Shown here piece after piece: positions 54,528 through 64,000 of a stretch of 64,000 bases of DNA (the stretch's first letter is position 1; the number at the start of each line of letters is the position of its first letter). Location: assembly GCA_964518305.1 (NCBI GenBank), contig CAZFDK010000006.1:22618-86617 (forward strand), given 5' to 3'. The notes under the pieces are model-generated. The model was not told where the DNA came from. It was given only the letters and a program-made list of their open reading frames with translations, and made no database searches. Both the position numbers and the translations under genes were made by a program. This stretch comes from an uncultured Gemmatimonadota bacterium (GTDB taxonomy: Bacteria; Gemmatimonadota; Gemmatimonadetes; Palauibacterales; Palauibacteraceae).

Positions 54528-56605
54528 CGGCGAGGCACGGTCCGCAGCCGGCGCACGTGTCCGGAGGGTGTCACGCCGAACAGCGGAACCCGCAGGCGGT
54601 CGTCGCCGAGTTCGATCGCTGTCCCGCTCGCGCCGAGGACGAGTGAGCTCGTGGTGGAGAGCTGGAAAGAATCGGCCGCGCCCGTGTCCACGGCGTAGTA
54701 CTGGTCCGCGAGGGAGGCGATGCTCACGACGCTGAGCGGGTTGTCCACGGACGGGTTGATGAACCCGGTCATCAGCTCCGTGCCGAAGACGGACTCCCGC
54801 CAGTGCGCGTTGCGGGTGCCATCTCCGCCCTGGTTCGCCACCGGCACCGGCTCCCCGTCATACCCGCTGCCGCCGATGGCGAGAAAGCGATCGATGGCGA
54901 AGGGCCCCGTGAAGAAGGGATCGTCGGTGTCGCTTCCCTCACGGAGCTGATAGGGGCCGGTGTTGTCGCCGCCCTGGACGTTCCACAGCCCGCCGAAGCC
55001 CAGCACGTGGGCGATCTCGTGGATGACGATCTCCTCCAGCGCCCCCCCGCTTCCGCCCACGTCGGCGGTGTCGACGACCATGCCGCCGGCCAGGGGGAGG
55101 GGCGGCCGCCCGGGATCCGTGTCGCTGGTGCGGATGAAGCACGGCCCGGCCCGGGCGAGGGCCCCGCCCTCTCCGTCGATGGAGTCGCTCCGGACCATCA
55201 GCAGGAGGTCGTCGATGTTCGCTCCGCGCTTTCCCGCGTCGGTCGTCGCCCGGAAGCACTGGTCCAGGTCGATGGAGTCGGCGAAGGCGACGTCCTCGAG
55301 GTCGCCCGTGATCACACGCGTCCACCGGTCGCGGGCCGAGCGCGCCACGGTCCGGAGCGAGTCGGAGACGGTGCCCACGAACTGGAGCTCGATGTCGTAG
55401 CCCGGGGGATGGCTCTCCAGGCGCGCCGTCGCCGTGTTGTCACCCTCGTTCGTCTCGGAGATCCTGTCGCCCGGGTCCACGACCAGCGTCAGCCGGTGTG
55501 TCCCGGCGGCGAATGGTCCGAGGTCGGACTGCGGTGGCAGGGAGTCAGAGGCGCCTGCCGGCAGGGCGGAGAGGGTGCCCGAGCGGAGCGTCGTCCCGCC
55601 GGCGTCCCGGATGCTCCACTCCACGGAGGACAGATCGGTCGGTCCGGTGTTGGTGATCACCCCGCCCAGCTGCACCGTCGAGTCGCGGAGCACGCCGCGG
55701 GGCGTCAGGAAGACGGACCCCACACTGAGGTTCGACCCCGCCGCGACGCGGACGGCGCCGCTGGTGCCGTCGGGGGCCTCGGCCACGACCTCGGCGGTCC
55801 CGCTGCCCACCACGGCGGCCCGGGCCGTGCTGTCCGTCGACTGGACGACGGTGACCACGGCGGCGTCCGTGGAGCTCCACGACAGCCCCGTGCCGGGGAC
55901 CGCGTTGCCCGCGGCGTCCACGACCTCGCCCGTGACGTCGAGCGTGTCACCGCGGGCGGCCCGGACGCTGTCCGGGCTGACGAGCACCCTCGCCACTCTC
56001 TGCTCCACGACCAGCTTCGACGTGTCGGCCATTCCGGCCGCCCGGCCGACGACTCCCGTCACGCCCTCGCTCTGCGACCGGGCCGTACCGGAGGTGTCGA
56101 TGGTGGCGACGGAAGGGCGGACGGTCGTCCAGGTCGCCGAGATGTCCGCGACCGCGTTGCCGTTCGGGTCCAGGGCCTCGGTCCGGAACTCCCGCGTGGT
56201 CCCCAGGGCATCGACCAGGGCCGAGTCCGGCTTCACCTGCACCGCGACGACTTCCTGGTCGACGGTGAGCCCGGCCGAAGCGGTGACGGGCGCGCCTCCC
56301 ACCCGCGCCTCGAGCTGCGTCGTTCCGGAGCCGACGGCCGTGACCGTACCGGTGCTGTCGACGGTCGCCACGCCCTCGTCGGCGGTGCTCCACACCAGTT
56401 CGACCTCCTGCACCCGCTCACCGGACGAGGAGAGCGGGCGAGCGGTGAACTGCTGCGTCCCGCCGATGGCGGAAAGGGTGGCCGATCCCGGTGCGAGCTC
56501 CAGCCGGTCCACGGCGCTGGGGCCCGTCAGGTCGCCGCTGCAGGCCGCGATCGCCGCGGTCGCGAATGCGGCCGCCGCGAGACGCGCCGCTGATGGACAC
56601 TTCAT
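54524..56605 (-). CDS. Lipoprotein: 3x Big_2-like Ig repeats plus a CARDB-like domain plus a leishmanolysin-like (M8) zinc metallopeptidase domain
   Basis: It has a lipobox AAIAAC and three repeats of the pattern 'V..V.V.P....l.a.G.t..f.a...d..Gn.v......W.s.d..vAtvd..G.v.a...G'. A CARDB-like segment ends in NEGDNTA. The catalytic motif is HEIAHVLGFGGLW (HExxHxxGF) with a downstream NAHW. Confidence 0.75.
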   Translation of the reverse strand: MKCPSAARLAAAAFATAAIAACSGDLTGPSAVDRLELAPGSATLSAIGGTQQFTARPLSSSGERVQEVELVWSTADEGVATVDSTGTVTAVGSGTTQLEARVGGAPVTASAGLTVDQEVVAVQVKPDSALVDALGTTREFRTEALDPNGNAVADISATWTTVRPSVATIDTSGTARSQSEGVTGVVGRAAGMADTSKLVVEQRVARVLVSPDSVRAARGDTLDVTGEVVDAAGNAVPGTGLSWSSTDAAVVTVVQSTDSTARAAVVGSGTAEVVAEAPDGTSGAVRVAAGSNLSVGSVFLTPRGVLRDSTVQLGGVITNTGPTDLSSVEWSIRDAGGTTLRSGTLSALPAGASDSLPPQSDLGPFAAGTHRLTLVVDPGDRISETNEGDNTATARLESHPPGYDIELQFVGTVSDSLRTVARSARDRWTRVITGDLEDVAFADSIDLDQCFRATTDAGKRGANIDDLLLMVRSDSIDGEGGALARAGPCFIRTSDTDPGRPPLPLAGGMVVDTADVGGSGGALEEIVIHEIAHVLGFGGLWNVQGGDNTGPYQLREGSDTDDPFFTGPFAIDRFLAIGGSGYDGEPVPVANQGGDGTRNAHWRESVFGTELMTGFINPSVDNPLSVVSIASLADQYYAVDTGAADSFQLSTTSSLVLGASGTAIELGDDRLRVPLFGVTPSGHVRRLRTVPRR

Positions 56606-56964
56606 GGGCGTCGGCAGTCTCCCGTGCGGAAGGGGGCACTCGGCTTCCGGCTCGTTGCCCATCGCCGCCGGGAGCGGCTGCTGCCGCGCCGGAACGAGGG
56701 CCGAACGAGGGCCGAAGCCGTCGCATCAGAGTAGAACACGCGCTTCCCCCCCCGAGTTCCGGCGCTCCTGGCGTTCCCCGGCGCGGACCACCTGATGCAG
56801 GAGGCGATGCGAGGCGTTCACGGAGGCACCGGCGGGCCGTATCTTTTCGCCTTTCGGAGCCGCGCGGACGGCGGGGGGCGTCCGCGCCCGGTGCCGCTCC
56901 AGTGACTTCGGTCACGACAGCCCCGACATCGACTCCATCCACGCCATCGCGTTCGGAGGACCGC

Positions 56965-57762
56965 ATGCCCGAGCTCCCGCACGTCGAGATCTTTCGCCAG
57001 CACCTGGAGGCCACGTCCCTGAAGAAGGCCATCGAGGACGTGGAGGTGCGCGACGAAGACCTGGTCAAGGACATCTCTCCCGCGGACTTCACCGACCGGC
57101 TGACGGGGGATCATTTCGTCGGCAGCCGCCGCCACGGGAAGTACCTCTTCGCCGAGACCGGCGAGGGGACGTCGGTGCTCTTCCACTTCGGCATGAGCGG
57201 CTTTCTGAGCTGGTTCGAGGATCCGGATCGGGAGACCGACTACCCGAAGGTGCTCTGGCACTTCGAGGACGACGGGGTGCTGATCTTCGACTGCGTCCGG
57301 AAGCTGGGGGAAGTCCGCCTGGTGGAGGACGCCGACGACTGGATCGACGAGAAGGGCCTCGGCCCGGACGCCCTCAGCGAGGGCTTCGACCGCACGTCCT
57401 TCCGGGAGGCCCTCTCCGGCCGGCGCGGCTACCTGAAGACGGCGCTCATGAACCAGGAGATCATGGCCGGGATCGGGAACGAGTTCTCGGACGAGATCCT
57501 TTTCCAGCGCAAGCTCCCCCCGAAGACGAAGGTGAAGGCGCTGTCGGAGAAGGAGCTAGAGGCGGTGCACGACACGCTCACGCACGTCATGGAGACCGGG
57601 ATCAGCGCGCGAATGGAGGAGGACAATCTCCCGAGCCGCTTCCTCCTACCGCGGCGCGACGAGGGGGAGGAGTGCCCGCGCTGCGGCGGCGAAATCCAGC
57701 GGATCGAGGTCTCGGGTCGCGGGAGCTACTTCTGCCCGGAGTGCCAGGAAGAGGAGCCGTGA
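56965..57762 (+). CDS. mutM: Fpg/Nei family DNA glycosylase (formamidopyrimidine-DNA glycosylase-like)
   Basis: The N-terminus is MPELPHVE, with Pro2 and Glu3 catalytic. There is an H2TH region (MNQEIMAGIGNEFSDEILF) and a C-terminal zinc finger (CPRCGGEIQRIEVSGRGSYFCPECQ). Confidence 0.9.
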   Translation: MPELPHVEIFRQHLEATSLKKAIEDVEVRDEDLVKDISPADFTDRLTGDHFVGSRRHGKYLFAETGEGTSVLFHFGMSGFLSWFEDPDRETDYPKVLWHFEDDGVLIFDCVRKLGEVRLVEDADDWIDEKGLGPDALSEGFDRTSFREALSGRRGYLKTALMNQEIMAGIGNEFSDEILFQRKLPPKTKVKALSEKELEAVHDTLTHVMETGISARMEEDNLPSRFLLPRRDEGEECPRCGGEIQRIEVSGRGSYFCPECQEEEP

Positions 57763-57941
57763 GGAGCTGACGGGGAGTCGAGCAGGGAGCCGATCGGCGT
57801 CCGCCCGGAGGCCCCCGGGGACGACTCCAGCGGCGGACGGAGAGCCCGAGCCCAAAGAGCAGGTCGGTCGCCGCCGGGACGGGCCCCGCCGCCACCTCGA
57901 TTTGACATCCCGCCCGGACGAGCGGACGTTGTTCTCTGGTT

Positions 57942-57960
57942 GAGAATGAGTTTCAATTTC
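57942..57960 (+). promoter_or_regulatory. Candidate Fur box upstream of the TonB-dependent receptor
   Basis: GAGAATGAGTTTCAATTTC matches the 19-bp Fur consensus GATAATGATAATCATTATC at 13/19 positions. It sits in an AT-rich island 52 nt upstream of the receptor ATG, and a TTGACA hexamer lies at 57902-57907. Confidence 0.4.
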
Positions 57961-58011
57961 ACTCAGCCCGTGCGCTGGCCGGCGGGCGGAGAACCAGACG
58001 AACGACGACAC

Positions 58012-60381
58012 ATGAAACGCCTCCAGATCCTCTGGTCCGACGGACGTGTTCGAACTGTGCTCGCCGTGGCCGCGGCCGCGCTGCTCGCGTCTCCCCCGGC
58101 CCTCGCGGCGCAGGAGGTCGGGGAGCGGGACGGGGGACAACTCGTGGGGCGGGTGACCTCCGAGTCGGGCGAGCCGGTGAGCGGAGCCACGGTGCTCGCC
58201 GCGGGACCCGGCGTTCCCGGGCTCCGGCGGGCGCAGACCGGCACGCGGGGCGAGTACCGACTCGGGTCCCTCCCGGCCGGGAGCTACACAGTGACGGTGC
58301 GGGCCTACGGCTACGCCGAGTGGAGCCGCTCCGTGGACGTCGCGGCGGGACGGAGCCGCCACCTGGAGGTGAGCCTGCGTCCGGCGCCGGTCCAGCTTCG
58401 CGACGTCGAAGTGACCACGGCGACCCGGACGCTCTCCCCGGTGGGCCGGGTGCCCGCGGCGGTGACCGTGGTCGATCGGGAGGGGATCGAGGATCAGGCG
58501 GCCTTCACCTCGGACATCGGACAGATTCTGGATCAGACGGTGCCCGGGCTGGCGCCGGGCAACCAGAGCTCGAGCAACTTCGGGCAGACCCTCCGGGGCC
58601 GGGACCTGCACGTCATGGTAGACGGCATCCCGGTGAGCACTCCGCTTCGGGACGGGCAGCGGGCGCTCCACTCGGTCGATCCCTCCGCGATCGAGCGGGT
58701 GGAGATCGTCCGCGGCGCCACGGCGGCCTACGGCCACGGCGGCACCGGCGGGGTCATGAACATCATCACACGCCAGCCCGGCGACCGGCGCCGAAACGTG
58801 GAGACGGAGGTACAGATCACCACGCCGGGGACCGAGTTCGGGGAGGACCTGGGCTCCCGCCTCACCCAGAACGTCTCGGGACGGGTCGGCGACGTGGGCT
58901 ACACGGTCGGTGCCACGGTGGAGCAGACCGCGAACCGGTACGACGCCGAGGGCGACCGGATCCCGCCGAACCCCCGCGGCCAGGGGGGACGGGCCGACGC
59001 CACGGGCGTCAACCTCCACGGCAAGGTCGGGGTGCCGCTGGGGGACGATCACGAGATCACTCTCTCGGCCACCCGGTACGAGTTTCAACAGGACGACGAC
59101 CTCGGCCGGCTCGTCCCGGGCACGGTGGGCGAGCAGAAGACCACGGTGGATCCGGGGGAGGAGTCCCGGAGCGAGGACGTCGGCAACGAGCACACCGCCG
59201 CTCACGCCCGCTACCGGGCGTCGGACCTCTTCCTGGGCAGCGACGTGGAAGTCACCGCGTTTCTGGACCGGTTCACCGCCAGGTTCCCCTACAGCGGCTT
59301 CTTCGGGGCCCAGTCGCGGATCGAGTCGGACAAGGAGGGCGCCCGGGCCCACGTGAGCACGCCGGTGGGGATCCTCCCGGGAGCCGCACTCACGTGGGGC
59401 GCCGACTATCTCCGGGACGAGACGGCGCAGCCCCTCTCAGACGGCCGGGTCTTCGCCCCGCCGATCGAGCAGCAGAGCATCGGTCCGTTCGCCCGCCTCA
59501 AGCTGCCGGTCGAGAGCCGGCTCACCCTGCGCGGCGGCGTTCGACACGAGGAGATCTGGCTCGACGTGGACGACTTCACGACCATCGAGGAGGTCGGGGG
59601 GAACCCGGTGGAGGGAGGCGACCTCTCCTACAGCGCGACGGTGGCCGACGTGGGGGCGGTATTCGCTCTCACCTCCCGGGTCGACCTGTTCGCCAGTTTC
59701 TCGCAGGGCTTCTCGGTGACGGAGGTGGGGCGGCAGCTCAGGGGCACGACCGCCGAGTCCGTGGAGGCGCTGCAGCCCGATCCCAAGGAGAGCGACCACT
59801 ACGAGGCCGGTCTCCGCGGCCGCTGGTCCGGGCTTCACGTCACGGCCAGCGTCTACGAGAACACTTCCGAGCTCGGAACCACGTTCGACGAGGACCTGCG
59901 GATCGTGCGGTCGCCCGAGGAGATCCGGGGGGTCGAGCTCTCGCTGGACGGACGGCCCTCCGAAAGCTGGAAGCTGGGTGGAACGTTCACCTGGACGGCG
60001 GGCCTGCACGACGCGGACGACGACGGCGACGTGGACGACCCGCTTCCGGGATCCCGGATCCCGCCGGTGAAGGGAACCGCATACCTGGAGAACGTGACGT
60101 TGCCCGGGTGGCGGAACCGCATCCAGGTGCAGAGTCTCGGCGACCGCGAGGTCTTCCCGGAGGACGCCTCGGCCTTCGGCCGCGGCAACGTGGACGGCTA
60201 CACCACCGTCGACGTCTCCAGCGCGCTGGACCTGTGGCGCGGCACGGTCCGGTTGGGGGTGCAGAACGTGCTGAACGAGTTCTACTTCCCGCCCGCCTCG
60301 CAGTGGTTCAACGTCGGCTCCGGGTATACCGCGGGCACCGGCCGCTCGGTGAGCCTGACCTACTCGATCGGCTGGCGCTGA
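58012..60381 (+). CDS. TonB-dependent receptor with an N-terminal CarboxypepD_reg domain
   Basis: It has a signal peptide (...ASPPALAAQE) and the sequence GRVTSESGEPVSGATVLA...YRLGSLPAGSYTVTVRAYGY. The plug reads DGIPVSTPLRDG...IERVEIVRGATAAYGHGGTGGVMNIITR. The barrel ends in a C-terminal aromatic residue (YSIGWR). Confidence 0.9.
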   Translation: MKRLQILWSDGRVRTVLAVAAAALLASPPALAAQEVGERDGGQLVGRVTSESGEPVSGATVLAAGPGVPGLRRAQTGTRGEYRLGSLPAGSYTVTVRAYGYAEWSRSVDVAAGRSRHLEVSLRPAPVQLRDVEVTTATRTLSPVGRVPAAVTVVDREGIEDQAAFTSDIGQILDQTVPGLAPGNQSSSNFGQTLRGRDLHVMVDGIPVSTPLRDGQRALHSVDPSAIERVEIVRGATAAYGHGGTGGVMNIITRQPGDRRRNVETEVQITTPGTEFGEDLGSRLTQNVSGRVGDVGYTVGATVEQTANRYDAEGDRIPPNPRGQGGRADATGVNLHGKVGVPLGDDHEITLSATRYEFQQDDDLGRLVPGTVGEQKTTVDPGEESRSEDVGNEHTAAHARYRASDLFLGSDVEVTAFLDRFTARFPYSGFFGAQSRIESDKEGARAHVSTPVGILPGAALTWGADYLRDETAQPLSDGRVFAPPIEQQSIGPFARLKLPVESRLTLRGGVRHEEIWLDVDDFTTIEEVGGNPVEGGDLSYSATVADVGAVFALTSRVDLFASFSQGFSVTEVGRQLRGTTAESVEALQPDPKESDHYEAGLRGRWSGLHVTASVYENTSELGTTFDEDLRIVRSPEEIRGVELSLDGRPSESWKLGGTFTWTAGLHDADDDGDVDDPLPGSRIPPVKGTAYLENVTLPGWRNRIQVQSLGDREVFPEDASAFGRGNVDGYTTVDVSSALDLWRGTVRLGVQNVLNEFYFPPASQWFNVGSGYTAGTGRSVSLTYSIGWR

Positions 60382-60472
60382 GGCGAGGGACGGAGCCCCG
60401 GGCCGTCCCGACCCGGTGGCGTCGCGTCGGACTGGCGAACGGGACGCCCGCCGCCTCGCGATCGGATTCTCG

Positions 60473-61675
60473 ATGTTGAGACGCTGGAGCCTCGTCCTGC
60501 ACCGGTGGCTGGGCCTGATCGCGGGGCTCCCTATCGCCGTGATCGCCCTCACAGGCAGCCTCCTGGTCTATCGGGGCGCCCTGGACCGGGCCCTCCACCC
60601 GCCCCTGTACGACGTGTCGGTCGCGGCGCAGCAGGCCCTAATCACCCCCGGCGAGGCCCTGGCCGCCACCCGGTGGGAGAACCCGGACCCGGAACCGGTC
60701 ACCGTCCAGCTCCCCTCGGGTCGGGACGATCCGTACGTCGTCTGGCACGAGGCGGCGCACGGGGCCGAGAAGACCTACGTCGACCCGAACACCGGACGGG
60801 TGCTGGGAGTCCGGCCGGCGGGCAGCGATCCGGTCCGGACCCTCTTCGACCTGCACGTGAAGCTCCTGGCCGGCGAGCGCGGGGCGATCGCCGTGGGGGT
60901 GCTGGGACTCCTGCTCCTGTTCGCCTCGGCCACCGGCGTGGTCGTCTGGTGGCCGGGGACCGGGAAGTGGCTCCAGGCCGTGACGGTGCGCCTACGCGGA
61001 AACTCCCGGCGGGTGAACTACGACCTGCACCGGGCCGGCGGATTCTGGACCACGGCGTACCTGGGCCTGCTGGCCCTGACCGGTTCGGGTCTGATCTTCT
61101 ACGGGGCCGCGGGCGACGTCCTCAACGAGGTCACCGGCTCCACGTCGCCCCCGCCGCCCCCGGCGTCGGCCGAGCCTCCGGACGGCTCAGCGCGGGAGGC
61201 GCGCCCGGCCCCGATGCCGGCGGCGCGGATCGACAGCGCCTGGCGGGCTCTCCGGCTCCGGGCCCCGGAGGGTGAGGTTACGTTCATCTCCCTGCCGTCC
61301 GCCGCCCGGGAGCCGCTGAGCCTCCGGTTTCGCCTTCCCTCGGAGCTCCATCCCGTCGGCCGCAGCTTCGCGTACGCCGACCGCTGGTCCGGAGACCTGA
61401 TGCGTGTCGACCGGCAGCCGGAGATGGACACAGGACCACGCCTCCTCCACGCCCTCTACCCCCTCCACATCGGCGATTTCGAGGTGGGACCGATCTCGCC
61501 GGAGGTCGTGCGGCTCCTGTGGGCGCTGCTCGGCGTCGCCCCGGCGGTGCTGGTGGTGACGGGCTTCCTGGTCTGGTACCGCCGCGGTGGTGACGCTACG
61601 TCCGTCCGCGCTCGGAACGGGGCGGGTGACGCCGCCCCGATCTCCACCGAAGTTGAAGGGGAGAGCAGGAGATGA
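60473..61675 (+). CDS. PepSY-domain / PepSY-associated TM helix membrane protein (PiuB-like)
   Basis: LHRWLGLIAGLPIAVIALTGSLLVYR and DLHRAGGFW, with LHALYPLHIG motifs, are typical of iron-regulated PepSY_TM proteins. The ATG at 60473 was chosen. Confidence 0.85.
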   Translation: MLRRWSLVLHRWLGLIAGLPIAVIALTGSLLVYRGALDRALHPPLYDVSVAAQQALITPGEALAATRWENPDPEPVTVQLPSGRDDPYVVWHEAAHGAEKTYVDPNTGRVLGVRPAGSDPVRTLFDLHVKLLAGERGAIAVGVLGLLLLFASATGVVVWWPGTGKWLQAVTVRLRGNSRRVNYDLHRAGGFWTTAYLGLLALTGSGLIFYGAAGDVLNEVTGSTSPPPPPASAEPPDGSAREARPAPMPAARIDSAWRALRLRAPEGEVTFISLPSAAREPLSLRFRLPSELHPVGRSFAYADRWSGDLMRVDRQPEMDTGPRLLHALYPLHIGDFEVGPISPEVVRLLWALLGVAPAVLVVTGFLVWYRRGGDATSVRARNGAGDAAPISTEVEGESRR

Positions 61676-61715
61676 ACGAGGGCCGGCTCCCGAGCCGGCG
61701 AGCCAGGGAGCAGCC

Positions 61716-62231
61716 GTGGCAGATGACGTCGACGAGAGGCCGACGAAGGAGGCCGTCGCCTTCGCCGTCCACCGGGGAGGCGACCGCGAGACCGTTCTCG
61801 CCGTCCGCCGTCCCGAGGACGACGAGGACCTGCCGGGACACTGGGGGCTGCCCGCCGCCAGCCTCCGGGAGGGCGAGAGCTGGGAGGACGCCGTGCTCCG
61901 GACCGGGCCCGAGAAGCTGGGCGTGGACCTGGCCGTGGGCCCGCAGATGAACGAGGGGCGCGCGGAGCGGGACGAGCACGTCCTCCACATGCGCCTGTAC
62001 GACGCGCGTATCTTGAAGGGGAAGCCGGAGGTGCCCCGGGCGGGAGCGGCGGGCGCCGGAGTGACTCAGTACACCGACTGGGAGTGGGTCCCTCCGCAGC
62101 GCCTGGAAAAGGCCGCCGACGCCGGATCCCTCTGCTCGGCTCTCTACCTGGAGTGGCGGACGGCCTGGGAGGGCAGAGACCCCGCCCACCGGACAGGGCC
62201 GACGGCCGGGAGCCGCGGAGACAGCCGATGA
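61716..62231 (+). CDS. NUDIX-fold protein with a degenerate Nudix box
   Basis: EAVAFAVHRGGDRETVLAVRRPEDDEDLPGHWGLPAASLREGESWEDAVLRTGPEKLGV has the Nudix fold pattern. The box reads REx..RT..EKxG rather than the canonical REx2EE. The GTG start at 61716 was chosen to avoid a long overlap with the upstream gene, and is uncertain. Confidence 0.6.
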   Translation: MADDVDERPTKEAVAFAVHRGGDRETVLAVRRPEDDEDLPGHWGLPAASLREGESWEDAVLRTGPEKLGVDLAVGPQMNEGRAERDEHVLHMRLYDARILKGKPEVPRAGAAGAGVTQYTDWEWVPPQRLEKAADAGSLCSALYLEWRTAWEGRDPAHRTGPTAGSRGDSR

Positions 62232-62332
62232 GCCGTCACGGATTCCAGGGTGGGCCCGAGCCGGGCACGCCCATCCTCATGGCCCTGGTCCTCTTCGCCC
62301 TGATCTTTTCCCTGATCTTCGCGGTGAGCTGA
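62228..62332 (+). CDS. Candidate 34-aa single-TM micro-protein
   Basis: The sequence is MSRHGFQGGPEPGTPILMALVLFALIFSLIFAVS. Its ATG overlaps the NUDIX stop (ATGA) and its stop lies 2 nt before the next ATG. It is too short to validate from composition alone. Confidence 0.35.
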   Translation: MSRHGFQGGPEPGTPILMALVLFALIFSLIFAVS

Positions 62333-62334
62333 TC

Positions 62335-63651
62335 ATGACCCGTCCCGAGATCGAGAGCGAAGCGTTGCAGAGATGGACCGTGGAGGCCCGTCAGCGGAGC
62401 CTGGAGCTGGTGGCGGACCTGGACGACGACCAGCTGATGGGCCCGCACCTGGACGTGATCAACCCGCTGTTGTGGGAGATCGGGCACGCCGCATGGTTCC
62501 AGGAGCTGTGGGTCCTGCGGGACCACCTGGGACGCGACCCCATCCGGGACGACGCCGACGACCTGTGGGACTCCATCGAGATCCCCCACGACGACCGCTG
62601 GGACCTGCCCCTGCCGGACCGGGACGAGACGGTGGACTACATGCGGCGCGTCCGGGACCGCGTCGTCGAGGCGCTCCGGGAGCGGGGGGAGGGCGACGGG
62701 CGGCTGCGCTACCGGGCCCGGTACGCGCTCCACCACGAGGACATGCACACGGAGGCCTACAGCTACACGCGCCAGACGCTGTCCTATCCCCCGCCGGCCC
62801 TCTCCTTCGTGCCGGAGCCGGATGGAGCGGCGCCGGGCGGCGGCCCGCTGGACGGCGACGTGGAGGTGCCCCGCGGAACCTTCCGGCTCGGGGCCGGCCG
62901 CGAGGACGGCTTCGTCTTCGACAACGAGAAGTGGGCGCACGAGGTGGAGCTGCAGTCCTTCCGCATCTCGCGGGCGCCGGTCACCGAGGGCGAGTTCGCC
63001 GCCTTCGTGGACGCCGGGGGCTACGAACGCCGGGATCTGTGGAGCGACGAGGGCTGGGCCTGGCGCCGGGAGGCCGGTGCCGACGCCCCGGCCTACTGGA
63101 GCCGCGAGGGCGGTGAGTGGCGGGTCCGGCGCTTCGACCGCCGCCGGTCGCTCCGTCCCCACGTGCCCATGATCCACGTGAACTGGTTCGAGGCCCGTGC
63201 GTGGTGCCGGTGGGCCGGCCGACGGCTCCCCACCGAGGCCGAGTGGGAGGCCGCCGCGGCGGCCCGACCCGACGGCAGCGGCGGGCTCGCACGGGAGAAG
63301 CGTAGCTACCCCTGGGGCGAGGAGCGGCCGGACCCGGACCGGGTCAACATGGACTGGCGGCGCATGGGCCCCGTGGAGGTCGGGGCGCTGCCGGCGAGTG
63401 ACAGTGCCTTCGGCTGCCGGCAGATGCTGGGCAACACCTGGGAGTGGACCGCCGACACCTTCGGCCCCTACCCGGGCTTCGAGCCGGACATGTACGAGGA
63501 GTACTCGGAGCCCTGGTTCGGGACGCGGAAGGTGCTCCGGGGCGGTGCCTGGCCGAGCCGGTCCAGGATGCTTCGGAACACCTTCCGGACCTACTACACC
63601 CCGGACCGGCGCGACGTGTGGTCCGGGTTCCGGACGTGCGCGAGGAGCTGA
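62335..63651 (+). CDS. DinB_2 plus FGE-sulfatase-fold non-heme iron sulfoxide/selenoxide synthase (EgtB/SenA-like)
   Basis: The N-terminal DinB-like four-helix region has His ligands (EIGHAAWFQE, HHEDMHTE). The C-terminal FGE-sulfatase-type motifs are VNWFEARAWCRWAGRRLPTEAEWE, GNTWEWT, RGGAW and GFR. Confidence 0.85.
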   Translation: MTRPEIESEALQRWTVEARQRSLELVADLDDDQLMGPHLDVINPLLWEIGHAAWFQELWVLRDHLGRDPIRDDADDLWDSIEIPHDDRWDLPLPDRDETVDYMRRVRDRVVEALRERGEGDGRLRYRARYALHHEDMHTEAYSYTRQTLSYPPPALSFVPEPDGAAPGGGPLDGDVEVPRGTFRLGAGREDGFVFDNEKWAHEVELQSFRISRAPVTEGEFAAFVDAGGYERRDLWSDEGWAWRREAGADAPAYWSREGGEWRVRRFDRRRSLRPHVPMIHVNWFEARAWCRWAGRRLPTEAEWEAAAAARPDGSGGLAREKRSYPWGEERPDPDRVNMDWRRMGPVEVGALPASDSAFGCRQMLGNTWEWTADTFGPYPGFEPDMYEEYSEPWFGTRKVLRGGAWPSRSRMLRNTFRTYYTPDRRDVWSGFRTCARS

Positions 63652-63687
63652 CGGAGTGGGACGGATGAGAGGGAGAGGCGGTACGAG

Positions 63688-64000
63688 TTGAGGATCCTCC
63701 TCGTCAGCCCGAAGCCCCGGAACTCCCGCACCGGAAACGACGTCACCTCCCGGCGGTGGGCCTCCCACCTCCGGTCCCTGGGACACCAGACGGCGATTCG
63801 GAAGCGGTACGCGCCGGACGCAGACGACGCCGAGGATCCGCCGTTCGGAGGGCGGGAGCCGGACCTGCTGGCGGCGCTCCACGCCCGCCGCAGCGCCGGC
63901 TCGGTCCGGCGGTGGCAGAAGAAGAGGCCCGGCTGGCCGCTGGTGGTGGCCCTCACCGGGACGGATCTGTACCGGGACCTGGACGAGTCGCCGGACGCCC
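63688..64000 (+). CDS. Glycosyltransferase-like protein resembling the selenosugar synthase SenB (TIGR04348-type), 3' end outside the window
   Basis: From the TTG start it reads (M)RILLVSPKPRNSRTGNDVTSRRWASHLRSLGHQTAI...LLAALHARRSAGSV...PLVVALTGTDLYRDL, with 104 codons open to the window edge. The family assignment is from memory of its N-terminal pattern (TGN instead of the GT4 GG motif) and from its EgtB-like neighbour. It is not in the ORF track because it is truncated. Confidence 0.55.
   Translation, partial: MRILLVSPKPRNSRTGNDVTSRRWASHLRSLGHQTAIRKRYAPDADDAEDPPFGGREPDLLAALHARRSAGSVRRWQKKRPGWPLVVALTGTDLYRDLDESPDA

Follow-up and report, generated by a model that had tools for sequence, protein, structure and literature searches.

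At the end of a 64,000-nucleotide stretch of DNA from an uncultured Gemmatimonadota bacterium (the window, by which we mean that whole stretch), we uncovered the start of what is very probably a genuine selenoneine biosynthesis locus of the known senA–senB kind, with its other functions supplied in trans. The locus is centered on the gene for a 438-residue predicted selenoneine synthase, SenA, which is followed by the gene for a selenosugar synthase, SenB, that runs on beyond the window. The window lies on contig C6 of a metagenome-assembled genome (MAG) of 3.09 Mb in 177 contigs, 89.8% complete. This analysis shows directly what the genes encode, how the active sites are composed and that every partner gene is present; its domain and family calls were made by Pfam and NCBIfam profile searches with curated cut-offs. 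These searches bore out the gene order, the coordinates and the named domains given in an earlier reading made without database searches (the sequence-only reading).

The 438-residue synthase, in which Pfam recognizes the DinB_2 and FGE-sulfatase domains, scores 502.1 bits over profile positions 4–382 of the SenA equivalog model NF041186 of NCBIfam (cut-off 420), and 339.2 bits, under the cut-off of 360, on the EgtB model TIGR03440. Its active site was read from an alignment with M. thermoresistibile EgtB, Variovorax paradoxus SenA and Halomonas utahensis OvsA, the sequences being taken from PDB alignments. The iron triad H51/H134/H138 and the catalytic Tyr387 align with H51/H134/H138/Y377 of EgtB. 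The thiol-binding pair Arg87/Asp416 of EgtB is represented by His85 and Tyr421, and the residues that define EgtB membership are thus missing; in all SenA proteins Arg87 and Asp416 are swapped for a His and a Phe or Tyr, respectively (preprint 10.1101/2022.04.13.486033). The composite motif of the protein is therefore H51/H134/H138, His85, Tyr387, Tyr390, a Trp and Thr419-Tyr420-Tyr421. In a maximum-likelihood tree (quick search) it falls deep within a clade typified by a His at position 87, whose members are mostly adjacent to senB, with two genomes of the same genus and one of the same family as its nearest neighbors; the type I EgtB and the EgtB genes of relatives fall outside this clade. 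These features together identify the synthase as a predicted SenA. The sequence-only reading had called it an EgtB-like enzyme of the SenA type, and this view is sustained by its passing the SenA model and failing that of EgtB. The check suggested there, a comparison with bona fide EgtB, yielded neither a grouping with EgtB nor an egtD/egtC set in the operon.

The 104 residues of SenB encoded within the window score 95.7 bits on TIGR04348, over profile positions 1–89. When the entire genome is searched, the SenB model hits two fragments that are not in the same frame (270.2 and 116.3 bits) and that are separated by a run of exactly 100 N about 436 nt beyond the window end. The same 55 bases stand immediately before and immediately after this run, and collapsing the overlap yields a SenB of 342 residues that scores 368.3 bits on TIGR04348 (cut-off 300) and can be aligned without a break, at 88% identity, to the intact gene of a same-genus genome (G001). 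The apparent frameshift of senB is thus caused by the scaffolding of two overlapping contig ends, with repeated 55-nt flanks around the 100-N join, and is no mutation; senB is intact. A frameshifted gene or pseudogene was considered and is ruled out by the 100-N run, the identical flanks and the colinearity with the G001 gene. Left unmerged, such a join would lead an annotator to call senB a pseudogene. Of the functionally important positions of V. paradoxus SenB, N20, T23, H58, D86, Q131, R155, V157, K158, E231 and E239 are conserved in an alignment to PDB 8JJQ, while H235 is an Asn, so that the EGGAHV motif reads EGGANV. Lys158 is known as the catalytic residue, N20/T23/E231 as the determinants of sugar selectivity and EGGAHV as a characteristic motif of SenB (PMC10891094); K158, N20, T23, E231 and E239, whose importance was shown by mutagenesis, are all kept. 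The sequence-only reading had recognized SenB from its amino-terminal part, and the merged protein is indeed a full SenB and not an ordinary GT4 glycosyltransferase. Separately, the SenB gene of a Latescibacterota locus (L048; G048:C1:3373693-3374625) has a search-flagged TGA in its frame, which is either internal or merely reflects an overlap of senA and senB.

The remaining functions are encoded elsewhere in the genome. A profile search of contig C6 found no SelD, the enzyme that would fill the role of SenC, and the co-located senC of the canonical three-gene cluster is accordingly missing; senC had not been visible to the sequence-only reading either. The single SelD of the genome is encoded on contig C17 (TIGR00476, 361.8 bits, cut-off 125). 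In its gene the active-site codon is a TGA, the only one in frame (...GAG-U-ACKLGP...), which specifies selenocysteine (Sec), and a tRNA-Sec gene is present on contig C7. Exactly one Sec-containing SelD is found in 40 of 41 relatives of the same order, whereas only 6 of these 41 have a SenA above the cut-off. SelD thus appears as a housekeeping gene resident in a lineage that uses selenoproteins, and the senAB cassette, whose distribution is patchy, can rely on it and needs no selD itself; we attribute the lack of senC beside senAB to this resident supply of selenophosphate. Likewise, the absence of an egtD-like gene from the window, reported earlier, is confirmed, and the only genomic copy is a stand-alone EgtD gene on contig C59 (TIGR03438, 342.1 bits, cut-off 290.9). 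It adjoins an OpuC-type ABC transporter on the opposite strand, an ABC ATPase gene lying 250 nt upstream. Each of the other eight SenA-positive genomes of the phylum has one EgtD, and in seven of the eight senB lies directly beside senA.

A second full-length NHISS gene, that is, an EgtB/SenA paralogue, was found in the assembly neither by the SenA model nor by tblastn with SenA, and the one candidate, on contig C3, proved to be a partial match to the FGE-sulfatase domain. In a same-family genome (G016) an EgtB gene lies directly beside EgtD in divergent orientation. Nine genomes of the phylum are SenA-positive; four of them encode a true EgtB, with a score of 360 bits or more on the EgtB model, and the five that do not are the less complete MAGs (83–90%). 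It is suggestive only, then, that this organism makes selenoneine without ergothioneine, since the absence of EgtB could stem from the incompleteness of the MAG.

To place this arrangement in context we surveyed the 80 closest senA loci, which come from 80 species of many phyla, including Acidobacteriota, Poribacteria, Methylomirabilota, Gammaproteobacteria and Gemmatimonadota, and counted the genes within 8 kb of senA. While senB is found in 68 of the 80 loci, egtD is found in 36, selD in 27, a gene for a selenate-type binding protein in 10 and a MetE-like gene in 4; the NUDIX, micro-ORF, PepSY and TonB receptor genes that precede senA in the window recur in a single locus, that of G001. Because just 27 and 36 of the loci have selD and egtD, respectively, within this distance, senA and senB with neither senC nor egtD nearby make up one of the common layouts, and not a variant organization such as the sequence-only reading had considered. 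The named Gemmatimonadota MAGs among the SenA relatives are only weakly consistent with a placement of the present genome in that phylum.

These components suggest the following pathway: Selenium would be imported, probably via an ABC system encoded downstream of senB (a TIGR04553 binding protein with a PhnC/PhnE-type ATPase and permease), and reduced to selenide, which the single Sec-containing SelD would activate to selenophosphate. SenB would transfer the sugar of UDP-GlcNAc to selenophosphate and hydrolyse the Se–P bond to generate SeGlcNAc, and the stand-alone EgtD would make hercynine from histidine. SenA, as an Fe(II)/O2 enzyme, would then join the selenosugar to C2 of hercynine, and the resulting selenoxide would eliminate the sugar, to be finally reduced to selenoneine.

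The features of the locus and of its partners are collected in Table 1. The window ends in a tight string of co-directional genes on the forward strand, running from the TonB receptor through the PepSY_TM, NUDIX and micro-ORF genes to senA and senB. The ATG of the micro-ORF overlaps the TGA of the NUDIX gene as ATGA, its stop is separated from the ATG of senA by 2 nt, and senA and senB are 36 nt apart. The G+C content is about 72% across the stretch, with no compositional break seen. An Rfam search of window positions 56000–64000 and of C6:84000-102224 found no known RNA element, and a scan with promoter and terminator consensus sequences not tuned to this phylum found none of these.

Table 1. 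Genes and other features of the senAB locus and its proposed partners; positions without a contig prefix are those of the window
Feature	Position	Strand	Remarks
TonB-dependent receptor (siderophore-type)	57940..60381	+	Plug, beta-barrel and CarboxypepD_reg domains; TIGR01783 180.7 bits, below its cut-off
PepSY_TM membrane protein	60416..61675	+	Pfam PF03929 217 bits; 34-nt gap to the receptor gene
NUDIX-fold protein with degenerate Nudix box, 171 aa	61716..62231	+	GTG start; 40 nt after PepSY_TM
Micro-ORF, 34 aa	62228..62332	+	ATG start; one predicted transmembrane helix (MSRHGFQGGPEPGTPILMALVLFALIFSLIFAVS)
senA, predicted selenoneine synthase (non-haem-iron selenoxide synthase), 438 aa	62335..63651	+	ATG start
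senB, selenosugar synthase, first 104 codons in the window	63688..64000	+	TTG start; continues to C6:87488
100-N run within senB	C6:87053-87152		
MetE-like gene	C6:87518-88636		Directly after senB
Putative selenate importer	C6:88762-92307		
Its TIGR04553 binding protein	C6:88762-89712		
10-N run in the PhnC-type ATPase gene	C6:90429-90438		
Apparent ATP-grasp-like gene	C6:93484-94449	-	Judged by eye
tRNA-Sec	C7:7226-7322		
SelD	C17:34248-35168		In-frame TGA (Sec)
EgtD, stand-alone	C59:1915-2817		

The protein encoded two genes upstream of senA matches Pfam NUDIX (PF00293) with 34 bits (cut-off 21.1), its GTG start being fixed by comparison with G001, which differs by a 2-nt indel before the start and by an in-frame indel of 6 nt shortly after it. 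Its Nudix box reads R-T-G-P-E-K-L-G-V against the consensus R-E-U-x-E-E-x-G-U and does not conform to GX5EX7REUXEEXGU; the degeneracy noted by the sequence-only reading is thus plain from R-T-G-P-E-K. Its top solved relative is M. smegmatis MutT2 (34.7 bits; RTGPEKLGV vs RELREELGV), and two of the three catalytic glutamates of the box are lost. It is a member of a small family in which the box is degenerate throughout (the protein of window positions 61716-62231 and loci L123-L131), the homologues reading R-A-G-R-E-K-L-G-V. These occur in 11 of 41 relatives, are unlinked to senA outside this genus and have no conserved neighbors across nine relatives. A homologue is present in all six SenA-positive relatives and in 5 of the 35 SenA-negative ones; this co-occurrence is weak, involving three apparent independent acquisitions of senA, and could reflect shared ancestry. 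In-frame TGA or TAG codons in the homologues of relatives were considered as selenocysteine sites and rejected, the stops being natural C-terminal ends that the search had read through.

Compared with its G001 counterpart, the micro-ORF shows 10 substitutions, distributed 1/1/8 by codon position (P = 0.0034), with seven synonymous and two non-synonymous codons, and it looks like a real gene for a small membrane protein. In the encoded peptide a P-E-P motif precedes a hydrophobic helix; the peptide gives a sub-threshold match to PEP-CTERM (17.3 vs 20.7 bits) and is devoid of the usual basic tail of PEP-CTERM and of a passenger domain. When a similar hydrophobic peptide was looked for upstream of senA in 88 loci, G001 alone had one, and G001, one same-genus genome, is also the only one in which the NUDIX, PepSY_TM and TonB receptor genes stand beside senA. 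Hence, the four genes are genus-specific co-directional neighbors, and the NUDIX gene and the micro-ORF are probably not part of the pathway; their co-translation with SenA is possible but is no sign of a role in it. A variant pathway signalled by these two genes, as suggested in the sequence-only reading, is not supported: they adjoin senA in G001 alone among 88 loci of the senA family, and the NUDIX homologues of other relatives lie elsewhere.

Downstream of senB, a gene for a Meth_synt_2 (Pfam) protein related to MetE, which matches PRK06520 with 209 bits, below the cut-off of 313, is followed by the gene for a putative selenate ABC binding protein (TIGR04553, 358 bits, cut-off 250), and then by those for a PhnC-type ATPase (225.6 bits), interrupted by a run of 10 N, and a fused PhnE-type permease (317.4 bits). 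Selenate-type transporters have been noted beside many sen clusters (preprint 10.1101/2022.04.13.486033). G001 has the same string of receptor, PepSY, NUDIX, micro-ORF, senA, senB and transporter genes, but is without the MetE-like gene. The protein encoded here has a Cys in its His-x-Cys zinc motif (LHMCRGN). Three orthologues that are 53–55% identical (L053:5855-6958, L070:6832-7932, L087:3783-4877) come from one Latescibacterota locus, where the gene adjoins senA, and from two Methylomirabilota loci, where it is flanked by egtD and senA. All three carry an in-frame TGA exactly at the codon of the zinc-ligand Cys, with a conserved hairpin with a GGU loop 14 nt downstream of that TGA. To judge from the sequences, this looks like the pattern of a Sec/Cys selenoprotein family. 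The family at large, named “cobalamin-independent methionine synthase II family”, has more than 8000 matches at E <= 1e-30; of three close Cys-form homologues examined, one lies 4.8 kb from an NHISS-type gene and two are not near sen genes. Its linkage to selenoneine genes is thus facultative, though it recurs. It is conceivable, if rather doubtful, that the MetE-like enzyme has a working, if facultative, part in selenoneine metabolism as its fourth member, acting in selenol methylation to Se-methylselenoneine, in the handling of methyl-selenium or in methyl recycling for EgtD, and that the orthologues with the in-frame TGA at the zinc-motif Cys and the GGU hairpin 14 nt on make it a Sec/Cys selenoprotein family with selenium as a zinc ligand. 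In a literature search for a Sec-containing MetE-like protein, none of the papers listed was relevant.

Two further observations concern the wider surroundings of such genes. In seven Methylomirabilota genomes (L052, L056, L065, L070, L087, L095, L111), which include the two with the MetE-like orthologues, senA-like genes of this clade with the full SenA signature sit beside egtD, but the genomes have no bona fide SenB: in six the SenB model reaches at best 81–95 bits, with a distant GT, and in one it has no match. In the present genome, an apparent ATP-grasp-like gene, judged by eye from the sequence, lies about 7 kb downstream of senA. A report of 2026 describes clusters of NHISS and ATP-grasp genes that serve to make thiohistidine dipeptides (PMC13674229); the present gene, which follows the transporter and is read from the other strand, probably has nothing to do with the locus.

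Several points weigh against the reading of this stretch as a selenoneine locus. The genome is known from a MAG alone, with the completeness given above, SelD and EgtD lie on other contigs, their supply to senAB in trans being proposed, and senB is interrupted by a scaffold gap, so that its apparent continuity rests on the 55-nt overlap and on the colinearity with G001. The chemistry, the substrates and the product would be those of the characterised V. paradoxus enzymes, from which they are transferred by analogy. Further, the hercynine-binding motif Tyr366/Asn395/Phe396 (V. paradoxus numbering) reads Tyr390/Thr419/Tyr420, with the aromatic residues kept and the Asn in contact with the methyl groups of hercynine (Asn395 in SenA, Asn414 in EgtB) replaced by Thr; because of this replacement we can only infer that the acceptor is hercynine. 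Thr-Tyr-Tyr recurs in 11 gammaproteobacterial loci, where senB is adjacent in 10 and egtD in 9, and this adjacency argues that the variant may well be compatible with hercynine. Finally, among solved structures it is OvsA that the sequence matches best (334 bits), V. paradoxus SenA reaching just 228 bits. This last point bears on the possibility that the synthase is of the OvsA type and attaches selenium to C5 of free histidine, giving 5-selenohistidine or ovoselenol instead of selenoneine. OvsA of H. utahensis matches over the full length (334.5 and 328.1 bits), and in the tree both OvsA and V. paradoxus SenA branch without resolution at the base of the clade that holds the query. The ranking arises largely because V. 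paradoxus SenA is without a 52-residue segment that is present in the query, OvsA and type I EgtB, and the engineered SenA-like variant OvsA-YNF scores above wild-type OvsA against the query. Moreover, the OvsA specificity residues Met401/Gln430/Ala431 are Tyr/Thr/Tyr here, the C-terminal methyltransferase of the OvsM/OvoA type (TIGR04345) is not found in the genome (best score 22.6 bits against a cut-off of 170, a level seen in all control genomes), and EgtD is present, whereas most ovs organisms are without it. The specificity residues, the missing OvsM and the present EgtD rule out an OvsA assignment drawn from the PDB ranking and leave such an activity very improbable; for these same reasons the conversion of hercynine to selenoneine is the best-supported outcome of the synthase.

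Least probable of all is an ordinary EgtB that makes ergothioneine with a sulfur donor, next to an unrelated GT4. The score on the EgtB model is admittedly close to the cut-off, M. thermoresistibile EgtB aligns over the full length of the synthase with 260 bits and the genome does have EgtD; but the His and Tyr in place of the thiol-binding pair, a neighboring gene that passes the SenB equivalog cut-off and keeps the catalytic Lys, the scores of relatives on the EgtB model (409–594 bits for their bona fide EgtB genes and 325–351 for their SenA genes) and the separate long-branched group formed by the EgtB genes of three relatives all speak against it. Improbable too, if slightly less so than an OvsA-type activity, is a modified or different selenometabolite, with the NUDIX protein, the micro-ORF and/or the MetE-like enzyme as working members of the pathway, acting in nucleotide-sugar or selenophosphate housekeeping, membrane targeting or Se-methylation. 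It would account for the tight spacing from the NUDIX gene to senB, the purifying selection on the micro-ORF, the distribution of the NUDIX family among SenA-positive and SenA-negative relatives, and the MetE-like orthologues beside senA in Latescibacterota and Methylomirabilota as well as the one 4.8 kb from an NHISS-type gene. Against this, the NUDIX gene and the micro-ORF adjoin senA within one genus only, the NUDIX gene has no conserved neighbors elsewhere and its box has lost two of the three catalytic glutamates, G001 lacks the MetE-like gene in an otherwise identical locus, the MetE-like family is very large with two of the three close homologues away from sen genes, and the published pathway needs no further enzyme.

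The senAB locus adds a clear selenoneine locus in the Gemmatimonadota, an abundant phylum of soils and sediments with few cultured members, in which the pathway is rare: SenA scores above its cut-off in 4 of 401 genomes of an even sample of the phylum. It points to a cassette streamlined in a lineage that already keeps SelD for its selenoproteins, where senC can be dispensed with and the locus carries a selenium importer in its place. As the assembly has EgtD without EgtB, the organism may make selenoneine without ergothioneine, contrary to the reported tendency of the two pathways to occur together. What is known of the chemistry is unchanged, and both genes are identifiable by current NCBI models, such that standard annotation with these would name both senA and senB in what is a locus of the known senA–senB kind.

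Three characterised systems invite comparison. With the type I EgtB of M. thermoresistibile (PDB 4X8B) the synthase shares the DinB_2 plus FGE-sulfatase fold, the iron triad, the catalytic Tyr and, presumably, hercynine as the acceptor; unlike it, the query is without the Arg87/Asp416 pair, scores below the EgtB cut-off and belongs to a separate clade. The EgtB genes of three relatives whose motifs were read (G001, G016 and G022) keep Arg87 and are without an equivalent of Tyr377. The ovsA-ovsM-senB-senC cluster of H. utahensis (Kayrouz et al. 2024; 10.1101/2024.04.10.588772; PDB 8U41/8U42) provides the closest solved structure (OvsA, ~330 bits, full length) and resembles the present locus in the signature of a selenosugar donor and in having a SenB-type synthase alongside. 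It differs in having Met401/Gln430/Ala431 where the query has Tyr/Thr/Tyr, and in its OvsM methyltransferase, which has no counterpart here, EgtD being present instead.

The closest parallel is the senA-senB-senC cluster of V. paradoxus and Amycolatopsis palatopharyngis (Kayrouz et al. 2022; 10.1101/2022.04.13.486033). Unlike in that cluster, no senC is present in the locus, the single SelD being a selenocysteine enzyme encoded on another contig, and in a genome without EgtB selenoneine would be made without ergothioneine; at the residue level, the query SenA retains the 52-residue segment and has Thr-Tyr for Asn395-Phe396 of the V. paradoxus enzyme, and its SenB has EGGANV instead of EGGAHV. 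Like that cluster, the locus encodes a SenA and a SenB that pass the NCBI equivalog models, the former with His/Tyr at the positions of Arg87/Asp416 of EgtB and the latter keeping K158, N20/T23 and the E231 motif; and it has a putative selenate transporter nearby, as in a subset of sen clusters, with egtD unlinked, as in most of them.

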